Assembly (NCBI GenBank): GCA_031430855.1
Contig: JANPCG010000015.1
Span: forward strand, 641-64,640
Source of the DNA: Candidatus Kaiserbacteria bacterium
GTDB lineage: Bacteria; Patescibacteriota; Minisyncoccia; Phycocordibacterales; UBA918
DNA: 64,000 nt
Direction of reading: 5' to 3'
Each line of letters begins with the position of its first letter. The stretch's first letter is position 1. The notes below the pieces were generated by a model that had not been told where the DNA came from, made no database searches, and saw only the letters and a program-made list of their open reading frames with translations. A program made the position numbers and the translations under genes. Below are positions 4,243-26,739 of this stretch, piece by piece.

Positions 4243-4872
4243 CTATTGTATCGTAGGTGCGCTCCCGGTGATATCACCCGGATTGTATATGTGGTAAAAG
4301 AGTTCAACTAATTCATCGGTCTGGAGTGCAATCGTGCGGACTCCGATTCGGTTGAGTCCCTGTTCAACAATTGCTTGGCGTTGCTCGAGCTGGAGGCGCT
4401 GCTCTTCGATGGTCATATCATTTTGGATACTCATGCGGCCTTGAGAAATGATACTCCCAAAGCTTTTCGTGAGGTTTACCTTGGCGGCTGTGTAGGGAAC
4501 CACAACAAAAAAGTTTTTACTCATCACATCCACATCAGCCACAAAAGAGCGAATAAACTCAATGTATTCACGCAGCTGGATTCGCATTAAGTCGTTATCT
4601 TGATCGACGTTTCGCTCGTTAAGCATCGCTAAATACGGCTCAATATTAAGACGTCTTGATTGGACGTAAATCTGCAGTGAGAAATCAAGCGTGTTGAGGA
4701 AGTTTTGAAACTGAAACAGAATGGCTCGTTGTTCATCTTGAGATTTGAGCGCAAAGTTAACCGAAGAAGCTAAAAGAATCTTGCACAACTGACCACTTTT
4801 CAGTATGACAATATCATCGCGAATATCACGAATGGCAACAAATTCTTGGGTGGCTGCATTAGGGGTTGGCAT
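4243..4872 (-). CDS. VirB4 N-terminal-domain-like ORF. It is in frame with the downstream ATPase and separated only by TAG plus two codons.
   Basis: 209 aa, hydrophilic. The architecture (IRDIRDDIVILKSGQL...) resembles VirB4 N-domains. The stop TAG at 4243-4245 is in frame with the ATG at 4236. Confidence 0.45.
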   Translation of the reverse strand: MPTPNAATQEFVAIRDIRDDIVILKSGQLCKILLASSVNFALKSQDEQRAILFQFQNFLNTLDFSLQIYVQSRRLNIEPYLAMLNERNVDQDNDLMRIQLREYIEFIRSFVADVDVMSKNFFVVVPYTAAKVNLTKSFGSIISQGRMSIQNDMTIEEQRLQLEQRQAIVEQGLNRIGVRTIALQTDELVELFYHIYNPGDITGSAPTIQ

Positions 4873-4875
4873 AGA

Positions 4876-5307
4876 TTATTTTTTTTGAAGAGCTTGCAAT
4901 TCGAGACGCCTGGCGAGCGAGGTGATATCTTTTTTTGGACTACTCGCGGCGGGTATATAGCCAGGATTACGAATGGTTGTCGTGGGTAAGAAGCTTTGCT
5001 TGTGAATTATTTCTCGTTGTTGCTGCCAGAGATAGAGACGGTGTCGCCTAAAGTAATTATAAATAGCTTCTATAAAGTACGAAAAAGGTCGATTGTTGAT
5101 AGGGTAAAAAGAGAGCGCTCCCGCGAGAATTCCAAGTGGCAATCCAATGAGTATAAACACAATAAACGGAGCGGTGAGAAACAGTACGACCGCCATTCCG
5201 GCTCCCCCACCGAGATAGAGAAATTGCCGCCAAGTAAACGGGCCAAAAATTTTATCTTCAATTTCGATGAACTGCGGCACTTCAAATTGCATACCCGTAT
5301 TATACAC
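4876..5307 (-). CDS. PrgI/VirB3-like small membrane protein of conjugation systems
   Basis: 143 aa with two N-terminal TM helices (FTWRQFLYLGGGAGMAVVLFLTAPFIVFILIGLPLGIL). Sits directly upstream of VirB4, as in Gram-positive T4SS loci. Confidence 0.5.
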   Translation of the reverse strand: MYNTGMQFEVPQFIEIEDKIFGPFTWRQFLYLGGGAGMAVVLFLTAPFIVFILIGLPLGILAGALSFYPINNRPFSYFIEAIYNYFRRHRLYLWQQQREIIHKQSFLPTTTIRNPGYIPAASSPKKDITSLARRLELQALQKK

Positions 5308-5356
5308 GCACGAGGCAGTGTGACGAGAGCACTATCCCAAAATGTATTTCAGTTTA

Positions 5357-6037
5357 TTAGGCGCCCCAGCGTGGTGTTTCAATTGATGTCGCAGGCGGTG
5401 TCGTTGGTTTGGCGTCAGGGGTAGAGGTGTATGCCGGCAGGTCAGAGAGTGGGGTGCGCACTGGCGGTTGCTCCGAGGTATAGACCGGTGTTTCAACGTC
5501 AGCGATTGGTTCATAACTGGTTCGCTCTGGTGACCGCGCCATATCACTCGCCATAGTACGGATTTCAGGCATATGCGGTACTTCTTCAGTCGGAATGGGT
5601 GTAGCGCCGGTGACGGGAATACTCACGCTTGATGGTGGAATATAGAAGGTTGCACTAGAATGAGTGCTGGGGGCAGGTATAGGTGTAGACACTATGGTTT
5701 CTTCGGTTTCCGCATCTTCCTCTTCTGGTACAACAAAAGTTGGGTCAGAGAGTGGCGCCAAGAACTCGAGCACATCTGCCCCTAGTAATCCCGCGGTCGT
5801 CGCGTCTAGCCCAAGCTCTTGTTGGAGGAGTGGGACGGTGTCTTCAGTTCGGTAGAAGCCGAGGATGATGTCCCCCAGAGTTAATATTAAATCTACGTAT
5901 ATTTTTTCAAGGTGGTATTTTGTACTCATCATGATGCTAAGCTCAACAAGTCTTTTGTTGTAAAAGAACTGAATTTTTTCTGAAGACTGTTCGAGCACCT
6001 GTAGTCTTGAGTTGTGAGTTGTGTAGTTATGGTCCAT
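5357..6037 (-). CDS. Hypothetical protein with a Pro/Thr-rich C-terminal tail
   Basis: 226 aa ORF. Low-complexity PT-rich end. Overlaps the upstream gene by 11 nt. Confidence 0.4.
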   Translation of the reverse strand: MDHNYTTHNSRLQVLEQSSEKIQFFYNKRLVELSIMMSTKYHLEKIYVDLILTLGDIILGFYRTEDTVPLLQQELGLDATTAGLLGADVLEFLAPLSDPTFVVPEEEDAETEETIVSTPIPAPSTHSSATFYIPPSSVSIPVTGATPIPTEEVPHMPEIRTMASDMARSPERTSYEPIADVETPVYTSEQPPVRTPLSDLPAYTSTPDAKPTTPPATSIETPRWGA

Positions 6038-21997: not shown

Positions 21998-22591
21998 TTA
22001 GAGATTATCGGTATCGGTACCGACAACTTTCTTAAGAGTTTTTCGGAGCGCGTTGGTGTTGTTATTCCGCTTGTGGCCGCCACCTTTATACCCGATCAAA
22101 AATTCGTGCGGGTTTTCATCCATGTCGATGAAGTCATCAACGGTCTCACGTAACTTGCCTGAAGCTGATCGTCCAAAGGTTATGACTTCAACCTGACAGC
22201 CCTGACTTTTAACATACTCTGCGAGTGGAATAAAATCTCCGTCCCCTGTTGCTAATACAATTGCGTCAACTTTGTGGGCGAGCTTAATTGCGTCAACCGC
22301 CATCCCGACATCCCAGTCAGCTTTTTTTGCGCCACCGTAAAAAATCTGTAGGTCCTTCGTTTTGATTTCAATACCAATCTTTTCAAGTGCTCCAAAAAAA
22401 GCGTTCTCTTCCCCGCTTTCAGTATTTACGACGTATGAGAGGGCGCGAATTAATTTTCGATTTCCGAGTGCGGCATGAACAACTGCTCCAAAATTCACTT
22501 TTGACTTGTAGAGATTTTTTGCGCTGTGATATAGATTTTGTGTGTCGATTAAAATGGCCACTCGTTGTTCGTCGTGTCTGATGACTCCCAT
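21998..22591 (-). CDS. NYN-domain (LabA-like) protein
   Basis: N-terminal RVAILIDTQNLYHSAK motif typical of NYN/LabA. Confidence 0.7.
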   Translation of the reverse strand: MGVIRHDEQRVAILIDTQNLYHSAKNLYKSKVNFGAVVHAALGNRKLIRALSYVVNTESGEENAFFGALEKIGIEIKTKDLQIFYGGAKKADWDVGMAVDAIKLAHKVDAIVLATGDGDFIPLAEYVKSQGCQVEVITFGRSASGKLRETVDDFIDMDENPHEFLIGYKGGGHKRNNNTNALRKTLKKVVGTDTDNL

Positions 22592-22663
22592 ATAAAAATT
22601 ATTAGTGTTCTATTATTAAAAATGTTCCCTTAACTCACCTCGTTTTACTATACGCCAAAAAAT

Positions 22664-22694
22664 AAAAAAGCTCCAGGGTAGTGGAGCTTTTTTA
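22664..22694. terminator. Rho-independent terminator downstream of rpsO
   Basis: AAAAAAGCTCCA-gggtag-TGGAGCTTTTTT. Confidence 0.7.
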
Positions 22695-22695
22695 T

Positions 22696-22962
22696 TTAGC
22701 GCTTGAGTCCAAGCTTCTTGATAAGAGCTTCGTAGGCTGTTGCGCTCTTTCGTTCAAGATATTTCAGGTGAGCTCGACGGTCGGCAACAAGTTGCAAGAG
22801 ACCGCGGCGTGAGTGAAAATCTTTTTTGTGTTTACGCAGGTGCGTAGAGAGGTCCTCAATCTGACGAGTGAGTAATGATACCTGAGCTTCTGGAGAACCA
22901 GTGTCGGTGTCATGACGTTTTGTTGTCTTGAGAACATTTTCTTTTACTCGTTTTGTTAACAT
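22696..22962 (-). CDS. rpsO: 30S ribosomal protein S15
   Basis: 88 aa with the characteristic S15 sequence (TGSPEAQVSLLTRQI...HSRRGLL). Confidence 0.95.
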   Translation of the reverse strand: MLTKRVKENVLKTTKRHDTDTGSPEAQVSLLTRQIEDLSTHLRKHKKDFHSRRGLLQLVADRRAHLKYLERKSATAYEALIKKLGLKR

Positions 22963-23216
22963 AAATATAAATATTGTGGTGATAAAGATATATTAGATAC
23001 CTGTAGAGTTACAGACTATACCGCTACCTCCATTTAATAACCTGCGAAGGTGACTTATATTATAGCATATCCTTCAAAAAATGCAAGTATACACCCTATC
23101 ATTCTGGCTTTGTCAAAAAAGTGAGTCGGTAGGTATGCATACGCGAAGATTGGTTAATCATAAAAAGAAACCGACCCCAGGGGGGTCGGCGACAGTGAGT
23201 CGAGGTGGTGACCATG

Positions 23217-23534
23217 TTAGCGATATTGCGCTTTGATGATGTTTTGGTATTCATCATAGCTCGAGAAAGGAATTGGCTGATTTCCTATTCCCGTAATCAT
23301 GCCTGACAGTGAGTGTCGGACGTTGTGCGTACGCCACGCTTCCTTGCATCGGTGGTCACAAAAGTAGAGACCACCGAGTACTGCGTCAGCGATATAGGCA
23401 TGTGAACCGTCCCCTTTGATGGAGATGTTGGTTTCGCAGTGGCGACATTGTGTGTGCATGACAATCCCCGGTTGATAATCCTGCACTAAGATGTCATAGC
23501 TCGCACAATGAGTCAAGCGAGTATGTGTCCGCAT
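23217..23534 (-). CDS. Small Cys/His-rich hypothetical protein, candidate toxin partner of the upstream HTH-Panacea gene
   Basis: 105 aa with CRHC...CDHRC, consistent with a zinc ribbon. Start is 4 nt after the upstream stop. Terminator hairpin follows at 23162-23189. Confidence 0.45.
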   Translation of the reverse strand: MRTHTRLTHCASYDILVQDYQPGIVMHTQCRHCETNISIKGDGSHAYIADAVLGGLYFCDHRCKEAWRTHNVRHSLSGMITGIGNQPIPFSSYDEYQNIIKAQYR

Positions 23535-23537
23535 TAT

Positions 23538-24236
23538 TTAAAAGATCATGTGGGATGCTTCGTCGCGAATCGAAGCGTAGGAAATAATTTCATTTGGAAT
23601 TGCAGTTTGAAAAGGGTTTTGTTCTACGGTAAATTTTACAATTTCTGCGGTAGAGGCTCCGGCCCAAGCAAGCCAAATTTTTTCTATGTGTTTCAATTCT
23701 TTAGCACTCAAAAGAGAGAGAGATTTTTTGTTCGAGCCTCTCGTTTCTTCAATCTCGTACATATGATAATCATCACGATAGATTTGTTTGATGGTGATAG
23801 TTCCGTTTTGCTCCAAGTCATCAAGGAGGCGAAAGTACACATCCGCGACCGGTCCAAATTCACCGCGTCGGTACTGTATGCCACTCATGCTTTTGTTCGT
23901 CAGGTAGTACCATGAAAAATCCGCGATATATAATAATTTTGCCAACTTGGTTTTTTTAATTGACTGTTTGGATTTTTTAGCTTCTCGCAAATATGCGAGG
24001 AGCATTTGTTGATACCGAGCTATGTTTGGCGCCTCAGTTTCAAGTAGGGCGTCAAGCGTAATCCCGAATAATTTTGTCAGGCTGGACGCCTCGGCCAAAG
24101 TAAGTTCTTTGGTTCCCTTTTCAACTGCGACATAGGAAGCGCGGGACATGTTGGTATGTTTCGCTACCTGGACTTGCGCGAGGTTTCGTTCATCTCGAAG
24201 AAATTTAATCAGGTGTGCATATGAAGTTTTTTTCAT
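23538..24236 (-). CDS. HTH-XRE DNA-binding domain fused to a Panacea/DUF4065-like domain; putative antitoxin or regulator
   Basis: N-terminal XRE HTH (LAQVQVAKHTNMSRASYVAVEKG). C-terminal KLAKLLYIADF...GEFGPVADVY resembles the Panacea core; this is from memory and not searched. Confidence 0.5.
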   Translation of the reverse strand: MKKTSYAHLIKFLRDERNLAQVQVAKHTNMSRASYVAVEKGTKELTLAEASSLTKLFGITLDALLETEAPNIARYQQMLLAYLREAKKSKQSIKKTKLAKLLYIADFSWYYLTNKSMSGIQYRRGEFGPVADVYFRLLDDLEQNGTITIKQIYRDDYHMYEIEETRGSNKKSLSLLSAKELKHIEKIWLAWAGASTAEIVKFTVEQNPFQTAIPNEIISYASIRDEASHMIF

Positions 24237-24321
24237 AGAAATACAGAGGAAGTTACTTCCATAGTGTACCGTAACAAAGAAGAATATGTGTCAATTTTAT
24301 TAACACCATGTGTCACTTTTG

Positions 24322-26739
24322 TTACCTCTTTATATCACTTAGTCCGAGTGTAATTACGTCCCCGCTTTTGATAGTTCCTGAAATAATACGTGAAGCGATA
24401 GCATCTTCAATCGTGTCTTGAATCACCCGTCCCATAGCGCGAGCACCAAATTGTTCATCATAACCCGCTTCTGATATATGAGAAATTAGTTCCGGTTCAA
24501 TTTCCAAGGTGTAGCCTTCCTTGGCTACACGTGCAGTGAGGTCACGGAGTAAGAGAGCGGCAATTTTTTCTTGTTCAGGGCGTGTGAGCGATTCAAAAAT
24601 TATTGTGTTATCAAACCGATTAATTAATTCCGGTCTAAAAATTCCGGCTTTAATAATTCCGGCAATAATTTCAATCTCGAGAGCTGGTGCTGCTCCTCGA
24701 TTATTTTTGGTTCGGGCAATCAGATCACTTCCTGCGTTACTGGTAGCAATCAGTATTGTGTTGCGTACATTAACGCGCTCTCCTCGGTGGCTGGTGAAAA
24801 AACCCTCGTCAAGAATTTGGAGAAACAAGTCATGAACCATCTGATGTGCTTTTTCAAACTCATCAAACAGAACAACGGCATACGGATGTTCATGAAACGC
24901 ATCAGTCAGTACCCCGCTGTTTTGGTCGTCACCAATCAGATGTGCGAGAGCTGTTTCATTGCTATATTCAGACATGTCAAATCGAACAAGGGCCGTCTCA
25001 TCACCAAAAAATACATACGCAAGCGCTTTCGCTGTTTCTGTCTTTCCAACACCCGTTGGTCCGAGAAAGAGAAATGAACCAATTGGTTTATCTGCTCGTT
25101 CAATCGAGACGCGAGCGCGGCGCATGGTTTTTGCTAACGCCGTAATGGCTGCACCTTGTCCAACGATGCGGGTGTGTAACACGTCTTCAAGGTGGAGTAA
25201 CTGATCACGTTCGGTGTCAGTGACAGGGCCGGTTGGGATTCCCGTCTTGTCCCCCAAGAGCTGGCCCACATACGTTTCAGTAATAGTTTTTGTGTTGCTT
25301 CGTGCTCCTATTTCTGCTACCTCTGATAAAAATTGAATTGCACGTTCAGGCATGTCGCCTACGGTAAGGTACCGCTCAGAGCCGCTCGCGATTTTTGCTA
25401 TTGCTGCGTAGGTAAATCGAATACCATAGTAGGCTTCCTTTTTAATCACCAATGGTTCAAGGATAGTGATGGTTTCCTCGACACTGGCTGGTTCAATCAA
25501 GATTTCTTCGAATCTTCTAATAAAGAGCGCATTATTTTCCAAGTGTTGGTGATAAGTGTCAGGCGAGTCGGTCGCCAAAAGGTGAAGTGTCGGAAGGGTC
25601 AAATAAGAATCCAATAAGGTGGTCATATCTACTCCTCGGGCTTTGGTTGCTAAGAGGACCTGGCTCAGGTTAGGAATAATAATTGCATGGTTCCCCGCTC
25701 GTGCAGCCCCACTGAGTATCCGATGGAGCATTAATTCAAATTGGGTGGCTTCGGGGAGTTTTGCCATTAGTCGTTCAATATCAAGAACACTAAAATGGAG
25801 TGACCGAAGCGCATTTAATCCACCACCTCGCGTTATTTTTTTAGCAGCGTGCGCAATAATTCCTAAAGTACCTACCCCTGGGTTGCCAATAAGGAGTACG
25901 TTGGCTGCTCGACTGCGGGCCAAAGCAACTTCAATTTTTTCAATAGCAGCTTTTTGTTCAGTTGAGGTACCTCCCGTTTCAGTGTCCGCAGGTAACCGAG
26001 AAAGTGGCTTTGAAAATTCTTGTAGTTCGTATGGAATACCCTCGGATAACGCACTACCAAGTGCGCCGAGTCGTGACAGCTGATCTCTTCCCCACCAGCG
26101 CTGCTTTCGTACACTATGTTCGTGTGTCTTGGTAACAAAGCGGGTCGTGGCGAGAAACATTGTTTCATCGCAGCCAGCCTGGGTGCATACTGTGCGAAAA
26201 CCAGAATCATATATATATATGTATGTTGCAATATCTACAACGGTAGTCATTCGCTCGGACTGCAGTGGGACTTCGGTAGCCGCTAATTTCATACGGGCAG
26301 CAGTGAGGTAGGCACTGATTGCTTCGGGAGTAATTTCGCAACGCTCAATTATTTCTTTACCCATAGCGGTTCCCCAAAAACCACTCACGATATCACTTTT
26401 ATTCGAGAGGAGAATCAAGGCCGCTCTGTAGGTTAGTCCGGTGTAGATTTTATTAGCGCTGTTTCTAATTGAATCAAATCCGCGAAAATAAAAACTATTA
26501 TGGTAACAATATAAAAGAACCTGCTCTAGCCAGAGCCCAAAAAACAATAATGAAATTCCAAACCAGAGCGGGAGCGGTAGTGCTAATGAAAATATAAACG
26601 TTGCTAAAAATGTCGTGATAGAAATTAAAAATACACAGAAAAATACGATGCGGAGTCTCTGCATCACGCTACGGGGGAGAATACGACTGAGTCTGATAAT
26701 GGGTTCGAAGCTCTGCAATTCTGAGTTAATAGTTTTCAT
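24322..26739 (-). CDS. Membrane-anchored Clp/Hsp100-family AAA+ ATPase. NBD1 has lost both its Walker A lysine and its Walker B acidic pair; NBD2 is intact.
   Basis: Likely ATG at 26739 with an ATGA overlap on the upstream gene. Two N-terminal TM helices. NBD1 reads GNPGVGTLGIIAHAA (no Lys) and its Walker B reads IIIPNLS. NBD2 has GPTGVGKTETAKALA and VVLFDEFEKAH. Confidence 0.75.
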   Translation of the reverse strand: MKTINSELQSFEPIIRLSRILPRSVMQRLRIVFFCVFLISITTFLATFIFSLALPLPLWFGISLLFFGLWLEQVLLYCYHNSFYFRGFDSIRNSANKIYTGLTYRAALILLSNKSDIVSGFWGTAMGKEIIERCEITPEAISAYLTAARMKLAATEVPLQSERMTTVVDIATYIYIYDSGFRTVCTQAGCDETMFLATTRFVTKTHEHSVRKQRWWGRDQLSRLGALGSALSEGIPYELQEFSKPLSRLPADTETGGTSTEQKAAIEKIEVALARSRAANVLLIGNPGVGTLGIIAHAAKKITRGGGLNALRSLHFSVLDIERLMAKLPEATQFELMLHRILSGAARAGNHAIIIPNLSQVLLATKARGVDMTTLLDSYLTLPTLHLLATDSPDTYHQHLENNALFIRRFEEILIEPASVEETITILEPLVIKKEAYYGIRFTYAAIAKIASGSERYLTVGDMPERAIQFLSEVAEIGARSNTKTITETYVGQLLGDKTGIPTGPVTDTERDQLLHLEDVLHTRIVGQGAAITALAKTMRRARVSIERADKPIGSFLFLGPTGVGKTETAKALAYVFFGDETALVRFDMSEYSNETALAHLIGDDQNSGVLTDAFHEHPYAVVLFDEFEKAHQMVHDLFLQILDEGFFTSHRGERVNVRNTILIATSNAGSDLIARTKNNRGAAPALEIEIIAGIIKAGIFRPELINRFDNTIIFESLTRPEQEKIAALLLRDLTARVAKEGYTLEIEPELISHISEAGYDEQFGARAMGRVIQDTIEDAIASRIISGTIKSGDVITLGLSDIKR

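Follow-up and report, generated by a model that had tools for sequence, protein, structure and literature searches.

Neighbouring HTH-Panacea and zinc-ribbon genes in Candidatus Kaiserbacteria: toxin–antitoxin pair or separable genes?

Two adjacent genes on the minus strand of a Candidatus Kaiserbacteria contig (positions 23217-24236 of the window, that is, of the whole 64,000-nucleotide stretch analysed) raise the question of whether they form a toxin–antitoxin (TA) pair or are neighbours that can be kept apart. A first-pass annotation made from the sequence alone had read them as a candidate pair, in which a 232-aa protein with an XRE-type HTH and a Panacea (DUF4065)-like C-terminal segment would act as antitoxin and an adjacent 105-aa Cys/His protein could be an undescribed toxin. 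Kurata et al. 2022 (PMC8832971) found about half of the DUF4065 proteins in TA-like two-gene loci and about half outside them. Both ORFs are present where the first pass had placed them, and we compared them with 93 related loci, referred to below by their L-numbers.

The first gene and the domains of its product map as follows:

23538..24236, minus strand: panA-like gene, 232 aa, XRE-type HTH at the N-terminus and Panacea (DUF4065) at the C-terminus (ORF and Pfam)
24045..24209, minus strand: HTH_3 domain of PanA, residues 10-64 (PF01381, 34.1 bits against a cut-off of 23)
23613..23945, minus strand: Panacea/SocA-like domain of PanA, residues 98-208 (PF13274)

Both domains that the first pass had proposed for PanA were borne out by profile searches, the HTH by the HTH_3 match above and the C-terminal segment by a near full-length match to SocA_Panacea (PF13274; 47.6 bits with a gathering cut-off of 25.7, E=3.6e-12) that covers positions 1-111 of the 113 in the profile. 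PanA has 295 homologues, most of them 231 aa long, and an alignment of 19 sequences with identities down to 51% retains 59 invariant columns. The AF2 model, built with 19 homologues, reaches a pLDDT of 91; it begins with five helices, in keeping with an HTH, continues through a linker helix and ends in an alpha/beta domain. In Foldseek searches, the HTH resembles the corresponding domains of HipB, C.AhdI, DdrO and SinR, and the C-terminal part weakly resembles the DarT-binding region of DarG (7yk3, TM 0.39-0.46), in agreement with a weak NCBIfam match of PanA to DarG (E=1e-4). Pfam revealed no neutralising domain besides Panacea, PADLOC returned HTH matches only, the NCBIfam SocA equivalog NF047745 stayed below threshold (13.6 bits, cut-off 190), and a search of viral contigs yielded no PanA relatives.

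Upstream of panA we located two elements of interest:

24263..24316, minus strand: putative PanA promoter/operator region with two TGACACAT repeats (24286-24293 and 24308-24315) and a -10-like TACACT (24263-24268)
24248..24260, minus strand: perfect 6-1-6 palindrome GGAAGTAACTTCC in the PanA 5' leader

The TGACACAT octamer has just two copies in the 64-kb window, 22 nt apart and both upstream of PanA, and TGTC/GACA repeats or palindromes together with a TATACT-like -10 box are kept at this place in 14 syntenic orthologues. An HTH occurs in 343 PanAs and is presumed to serve autoregulation (Kurata et al., PMC8832971). We infer that the PanA promoter is likewise autoregulated, with PanA binding the repeats, most likely as a dimeric XRE-type repressor at the TGACA-type sites of its own promoter. 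The palindrome GGAAGTAACTTCC was also considered as an operator and set aside, as it is absent as a conserved feature in the orthologues.

The second gene proved to be shorter than first thought, and the features around it are the following:

23217..23459, minus strand: small zinc-ribbon gene, here called Zn80, 80 aa, with a CxxC-x25-FCx3C-x3-W core and a C-terminal GVVxG...PF...Y beta-hairpin and helix
23460..23534, minus strand: non-coding spacer, formerly read as 25 extra N-terminal codons; not conserved as protein, holds a conserved promoter
23488..23516, minus strand: the zinc-ribbon gene's own predicted promoter, TTGACT, 14 nt, TGA, CATCTT (-35 box, 17-nt spacer, extended -10)
23465..23469, minus strand: Shine-Dalgarno-like GGGGA, 5 nt ahead of the ATG at 23459
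23170..23190, minus strand: intrinsic terminator of the panA/zinc-ribbon transcripts, ahead of the rpsO promoter; 9-bp stem with 7 GC pairs, then TTCTTTTTAT

The 105-aa reading (23217-23534) simply takes the longest available ORF. All homologues begin at a position that aligns with its residue 26 or 27, and in L005, which is the closest of the relatives that have a diverged copy, a stop codon breaks the supposed N-terminal extension. Taken together with the promoter inside that extension and the Shine-Dalgarno-like site, these observations place the gene at 23217-23459, so that its product has 80 aa and its start lies 78 nt, not 4 nt, after the PanA stop codon. GGAG/GAGG-type Shine-Dalgarno sites occupy the equivalent place in L005, L011, L019, L008, L017 and L042. 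The promoter is similarly distinctive: the pattern TTGAC-N13-TATGR occurs a single time in the 64-kb window, within the supposed 25-codon extension, and TTGACN-N14-TGN-[C/G]ANNNT is found 35-45 nt ahead of the start codon in every zinc-ribbon gene examined, including those of L014 and L092, which lack PanA. Conservation in the -10 hexamer of these promoters falls on A2 and T6, and the remaining spacer is not conserved. Zn80 would accordingly have a promoter independent of panA. The terminator that the first pass had placed after the small gene is indeed a strong one (fold of -21.4 kcal/mol, z=-3.2, U-run after the stem). No terminator separates panA from Zn80, which makes read-through from the former into the latter possible. 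An Rfam search over 22600-24500 gave nothing at threshold.

Zn80 belongs to a very rare family that the public record of this genome leaves without annotation. When 1.84 billion representatives were scanned exhaustively with HMMER, four relatives emerged, 78-81 aa long (E=2e-18 to 8e-5), and only 7 clusters among 5.8 billion clustered proteins match the Zn80 profile, two of which carry the JGI name 'YHS domain-containing protein'. Invariant in the alignment are C5, C8, C34 and C38 (the cysteines in 7 sequences) as well as G16, D17 and F33, and the family consensus reads CxxC...ITGDGS...(Y)FCxxxCxxxW...GVVxG...PF..Y. The zinc-ribbon likeness and the CxxC seen in the first pass therefore stand, but the C.H.C element described there does not, the actual pattern being CxxC-x25-CxxxC followed by W. 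In Zn80 the cysteines are spaced as C5-x2-C8-x25-C34-x3-C38, with a middle spacer of 20-25 residues across the family. TRASH domains carry the cysteine signature C-x2-C-x(19-22)-C-x3-C, and the spacer of the Zn80 family lies partly beyond that range (25 versus 19-22). No Pfam or NCBIfam model scores above threshold: the best Pfam match is DUF7576 (E=3e-4, 20.9 bits, below its cut-off of 27), with no match to YHS, zf-FCS or TRASH, and matches to L24e recur in PDB and NCBIfam searches at non-significant values (E=0.2-1). Zn80 also lacks matches in PADLOC and to toxin families. Its AF2 model is of low confidence (pLDDT 65), its predicted pI is 7.75, and it contains no hydrophobic segment. We conclude that Zn80 weakly resembles the four-cysteine zinc ribbons of the FCS/TRASH/L24e class, a likeness and not proven membership, and that it probably binds zinc.

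Public annotation of contigs identical to the window implies a different view, namely that the small ORF arose by chance in an intergenic spacer. Gene callers passed it over in L001-L007, identical contigs (including GCA_043735715.1) among them, and in L001-L004 called instead an ORF of 51 aa that lies over the terminator and is encoded on the opposite strand; a word-index homology search with the 105-aa ORF was likewise empty. However, homologues at 36-45% identity keep the invariant Cys, G, D and F residues, the start, Shine-Dalgarno site and promoter are conserved, and the gene is called in other metagenomes. These conservation data refute the chance-ORF reading, which we consider barely credible.

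We then turned to the chromosomal setting. The PanA relatives belong to Candidatus Kaiserbacteria and other Parcubacteria MAGs, and a recurrent gene order surrounds them down to 45% PanA identity: a ClpB-like AAA+ gene (805 aa), PanA, a variable spacer, rpsO, a NYN-domain gene and pnp. An M14-like peptidase gene or other genes replace the ClpB-like gene in some relatives. Optional members are a zinc-ribbon gene after PanA and then a convergent XerC-like recombinase gene before rpsO-NYN-pnp. Judged from sequence comparison, the rpsO-linked PanA is inherited vertically in the Candidatus Kaiserbacteria clade.

The slot after PanA is filled in different ways. It holds the 80-aa type in the window, L005-7, L010, L011-13, L019 and L041, and a 90-92 aa variant in L017, L042, L043 and L045. 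This variant shares the N-terminal and FCx3CxxW elements, carries an inserted second cysteine cluster and has no C-terminal tail, and L008/9 have it divided between two ORFs. Adjacency of PanA and a zinc-ribbon gene extends over at least six lineages, on the same strand, with gaps of 78 nt in the window, 65 in L010, 86 in L011, 64 in L019 and 102 in L005. The slot is empty, with 122-404 nt to rpsO, in L022, L031, L044, L046, L028, L033-35, L061, L062, L065, L070 and L072-75, and at least 15 loci have PanA without a zinc-ribbon gene. The converse also occurs. In L014 and L015, which lack PanA, an M14-like peptidase gene is followed directly by an intact zinc-ribbon homologue of 78 aa in which every conserved residue is kept. 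The peptidase is 60-66% identical to the one encoded ahead of PanA in L062 and L065, and the zinc-ribbon gene converges with a XerC-like recombinase gene whose product is 83-86% identical to that encoded downstream of PanA in L038, L082 and L085; these flanking matches identify L014 and L015 as the same neighbourhood minus PanA. A 59-aa version in L092 and L093 is also convergent with the recombinase, although only 67-87 nt of contig lie upstream, making the absence of PanA less secure there. The PanA-less cases comprise short contigs (0.6-1.5 kb) from two lineages with distant homologues (32-41% identity). Since PanA occurs without this partner and the zinc-ribbon gene without PanA, each gene is retained without the other.

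The two genes also differ in their rate of change. Between the window and L005, identity amounts to 98% for S15, 97% for NYN, 80% for PanA and 77% for the ClpB-like protein, and drops to 44% for Zn80 (PNPase is 79% identical between the window and L007, a contig of the L005 lineage). A faster 'toxin' beside a constrained, partnerless 'antitoxin' is the reverse of what we would expect of a type II pair.

A further comparison came from more distant PanAs. In a neighbour-joining tree the rpsO-linked PanA clade stands apart from a second clade, in which a conserved protein of 131-134 aa follows PanA in 7 of 11 loci, its gene overlapping that of PanA or beginning 2-40 nt after it. This is the classical antitoxin-first layout. 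The 131-134 aa family has no match in Pfam or NCBIfam, a PDB profile search gave nothing significant, and the window contains no relative of it. As a candidate for a new Panacea-associated toxin, this family is to be preferred over the small gene of the window.

Taking these lines together, we favour, with modest confidence, the reading that PanA is an orphan, autoregulated HTH-Panacea regulator that lies beside an independently transcribed, dispensable and non-toxic zinc-ribbon gene of FCS/TRASH-like appearance. The two genes would then lie next to each other yet be separable, in a slot whose content varies within a conserved neighbourhood of Candidatus Kaiserbacteria. PanA itself would be toxin-less and vertically inherited, with sister-clade relatives that still have the classical overlapping partner of 131-134 aa, and its Panacea domain may serve as a protein- or signal-binding module. 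Zn80 would have an extended -10 promoter of its own, probably supplemented by transcripts that read through from panA, and could act as a zinc-binding adaptor or metal-handling protein. We take it to be non-toxic because it is fast-evolving, dispensable and survives without PanA.

Three points run against this reading. Several subclades share the adjacency, with a gap of 64-102 nt, on the same strand and with no terminator between the genes. The cases without PanA depend on the short contigs from two lineages, and on distant homologues. Moreover, partner swapping within Panacea clades is common (PMC8832971), so that variable partners are by themselves no argument against a TA system.

How the locus fares under formal TA prediction depends on the criterion applied. 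To predict PanAT pairs, Kurata et al. [quoted passage not shown] On distance and conservation the window pair formally qualifies, and to this extent the pair proposed in the first pass stands; under reciprocity it drops out, since each family occurs without the other (L014/15 and L092/93 on one side, at least 15 PanA loci on the other). If it were a genuine PanAT pair nonetheless, the 80-aa zinc-ribbon protein would be a new small PanT toxin neutralised directly by Panacea, and PanA would additionally repress transcription. In favour of such a pair are the complete Panacea domain with an HTH and no other neutralising domain, the antitoxin-first order on one strand with a 78-nt gap and a shared terminator, and the adjacency in at least six lineages. 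Panacea partners are indeed varied, as the first pass had stated, being diverse and mostly unannotated (PMC8832971), and the fast evolution of Zn80 could reflect conflict. Yet the same neighbourhood can retain an intact zinc-ribbon homologue where PanA is absent, partnerless PanA persists across deep branches, the small gene has a conserved promoter of its own, and conservation is far lower for the supposed toxin (44%) than for the supposed antitoxin (80%). In addition, the locus is core-like, syntenic and not mobile, lacks viral relatives, shows no PADLOC or toxin-family matches, and has a sister clade in which PanA is followed by a different partner. The part of the first-pass proposal that made the small protein a toxin neutralised by PanA is therefore one we abandon, and we rate a genuine PanAT pair as distinctly unlikely.

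A functional link without toxicity is a stronger contender, if still somewhat unlikely. Here the zinc-ribbon protein would be a target, co-factor or ligand of HTH-PanA, either through binding by Panacea as a 'sensor' or through a PanA-repressed promoter, in an arrangement resembling the MqsA-type zinc-binding domain that is fused to HTH-Panacea. PanA repeatedly adjoins two variants of one zinc-ribbon family, and in the window, L005 and L011 the zinc-ribbon promoter has a -10 region that overlaps with TGACA(C)AT-like sequences, but this overlap is missing from the promoters of other zinc-ribbon loci. Precedents exist in the form of antitoxins that combine a zinc-binding domain with HTH-Panacea: the 2023 NetFlax study by Ernits et al. 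(PMC10440598) showed that in multidomain PanAs other modules, for example the MqsA-type zinc-binding domain, neutralise the toxin, and it proposed Panacea as a sensor. Against this, a comparison of the Zn80 and MqsA zinc-binding domain profiles by hhalign gave a probability of 1% (with a manually entered MqsA sequence), and we rejected Zn80 as a detached MqsA-like domain. Either gene also occurs alone, and a single ancestral insertion followed by vertical inheritance could explain the adjacency.

A bolder reading adds an evolutionary history: the Kaiserbacteria HTH-Panacea protein would have been domesticated from a TA antitoxin into a stably inherited, toxin-free sensor-regulator, with the fast-evolving zinc-ribbon protein as its non-toxic binding partner or regulated target. 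We regard this scenario as speculative and on balance unlikely. If true, it would be the first example of a non-TA role of Panacea in a minimal CPR genome. Should PanA work without a toxin, it would be a natural case in which to study the function of Panacea alone, and small CPR genomes are well suited to this, as the genes they retain are likely useful. The locus also carries a caution for adjacency-based TA prediction, in that vertical inheritance of a neighbourhood can by itself be enough to place a pair within 100 nt of each other in two or more species.

In the literature, our search returned no paper linking Kaiserbacteria with toxin–antitoxin systems, and the supplementary files of Kurata et al. 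(PMC8832971) that were searched make no mention of CPR taxa, zinc, YHS or TRASH. Set beside known systems, the locus shows a mixture of familiar and unfamiliar traits. Zn80 recalls the treble-clef ribbons of TRASH, YHS, zf-FCS and L24e, but its C-terminal tail GVVxG...PF..Y is without a recognised counterpart among them, and nothing in its context points to metal resistance. SocAB is a type VI TA system whose antitoxin SocA is a Panacea-domain proteolytic adaptor. The window PanA has the Panacea domain in common with SocA, and a Clp-family AAA+ gene stands directly upstream in many orthologous loci; in contrast to SocAB, the locus contains no SocB-like partner, and the match to the SocA equivalog is negligible. 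With the MqsA-type PanA (PMC10440598) the locus shares the association of a four-cysteine zinc module with HTH-Panacea, whereas in the window this module is a separate downstream gene and not an N-terminal fusion, and no MqsR-like toxin accompanies it. The closest likeness in architecture is to the HTH-PanA antitoxins (PMC8832971), which combine an XRE HTH with a complete Panacea domain as the window PanA does, and whose typical antitoxin-first, overlapping partner is found in the sister clade. The orthologue group of the window differs from them in occupying a fixed site by rpsO in a CPR lineage, where PanA is often solitary and its neighbour appears to have a private promoter.

In the sister clade of PanA, separate in the tree from the rpsO-linked clade of the window, the HTH-Panacea gene is overlapped or directly trailed by a conserved protein of 131–134 aa, encoded in the relative loci as follows:

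L029, 4405-4800, partner gene
L023, 4680-5084, partner gene
L039, 2158-2556, partner gene
L032, 4680-5081, partner gene
L036, 1258-1662, partner gene
L037, 4246-4641, partner gene

The partner is further present in L047, L059, L060, L068, L069, L077, L081, L083 and L084. Searches of Pfam, NCBIfam and PDB returned no match to this family (consensus ...HFIKKF.KKY...W..T...ICKTEF.IAGT..SRH.SGNRCI...VLLVYHK.D...NET..WK.). As a candidate for a Panacea-associated toxin not yet described, we rank this family above the small gene in the window.

That 80-aa zinc-ribbon gene (23217-23459, -) is left uncalled by gene callers in the ENA and NCBI contigs that are identical to this one (L001-L004, GCA_043735715.1 among them). 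Called instead is an almost certainly spurious 51-aa ORF on the opposite strand (23081-23236, +), which spans the terminator. The same slot, with the same preceding promoter, can hold a 90–92 aa variant that lacks the C-terminal tail and has a second cysteine cluster (CPCGCG...CTCxxC) inserted:

L017, 4779-5051, variant
L042, 3773-4051, variant
L045, 1316-1594, variant
L008, 4755-4910 and 4924-5097, variant in two ORFs

The break into two ORFs, found in L008 and L009, may reflect decay or a frameshift.

Between the ClpB-like gene and PanA, two related genomes have a conserved 63-aa ORF (L016, 3256-3447; L018, 3645-3836), a hint that small lineage-specific genes tend to accumulate around PanA, as in a hotspot. 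In several relatives, the variable slot that ends at rpsO and starts after PanA or, where present, the zinc-ribbon gene carries a convergent XerC/XerD-like tyrosine recombinase gene, which is not present in the window's own slot:

L038, about 4790-5485 (-), recombinase
L082, 3790-4485 (-), recombinase
L019, 5096-5743 (-), recombinase
L014, 783-1493 (-), recombinase
L092, 323-745 (-), recombinase
L085 and L080, recombinase

Beyond the slot, an NYN-domain (LabA-like) protein gene (21998-22591, -) is inserted between rpsO and pnp; its product shows 79–100% identity over all syntenic loci and is more conserved than PNPase.

On the other side of PanA lie two further features:

24248-24260 (-), perfect 6-1-6 palindrome GGAAGTAACTTCC in the PanA 5' leader
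24322-26739 (-), ClpB/ClpC-like AAA+ gene, 805 aa (AAA_2, ClpB_D2-small)

The palindrome, 12 nt upstream of the start codon, is not conserved among PanA orthologues. Synteny of the ClpB/ClpC-like gene with PanA holds down to 33% identity, and in L062/L065 a peptidase takes its place. Its longest ORF extends to 26892; the first ~150 residues of the translation look hydrophobic, as does a 132-aa protein encoded ahead of it.

The Panacea domain (23613-23945, -) is weakly similar to the antitoxin DarG both in sequence (NCBIfam NF048014, E=1e-4; PanA residues 66-179) and in structure (Foldseek 7yk3, TM 0.39-0.46), the part resembled being DarG's C-terminal, DarT-binding part. The Panacea domain's founding protein, SocA, serves as an adaptor for Clp; a functional link between PanA and the adjoining ClpB/ClpC-like gene would be hypothetical.
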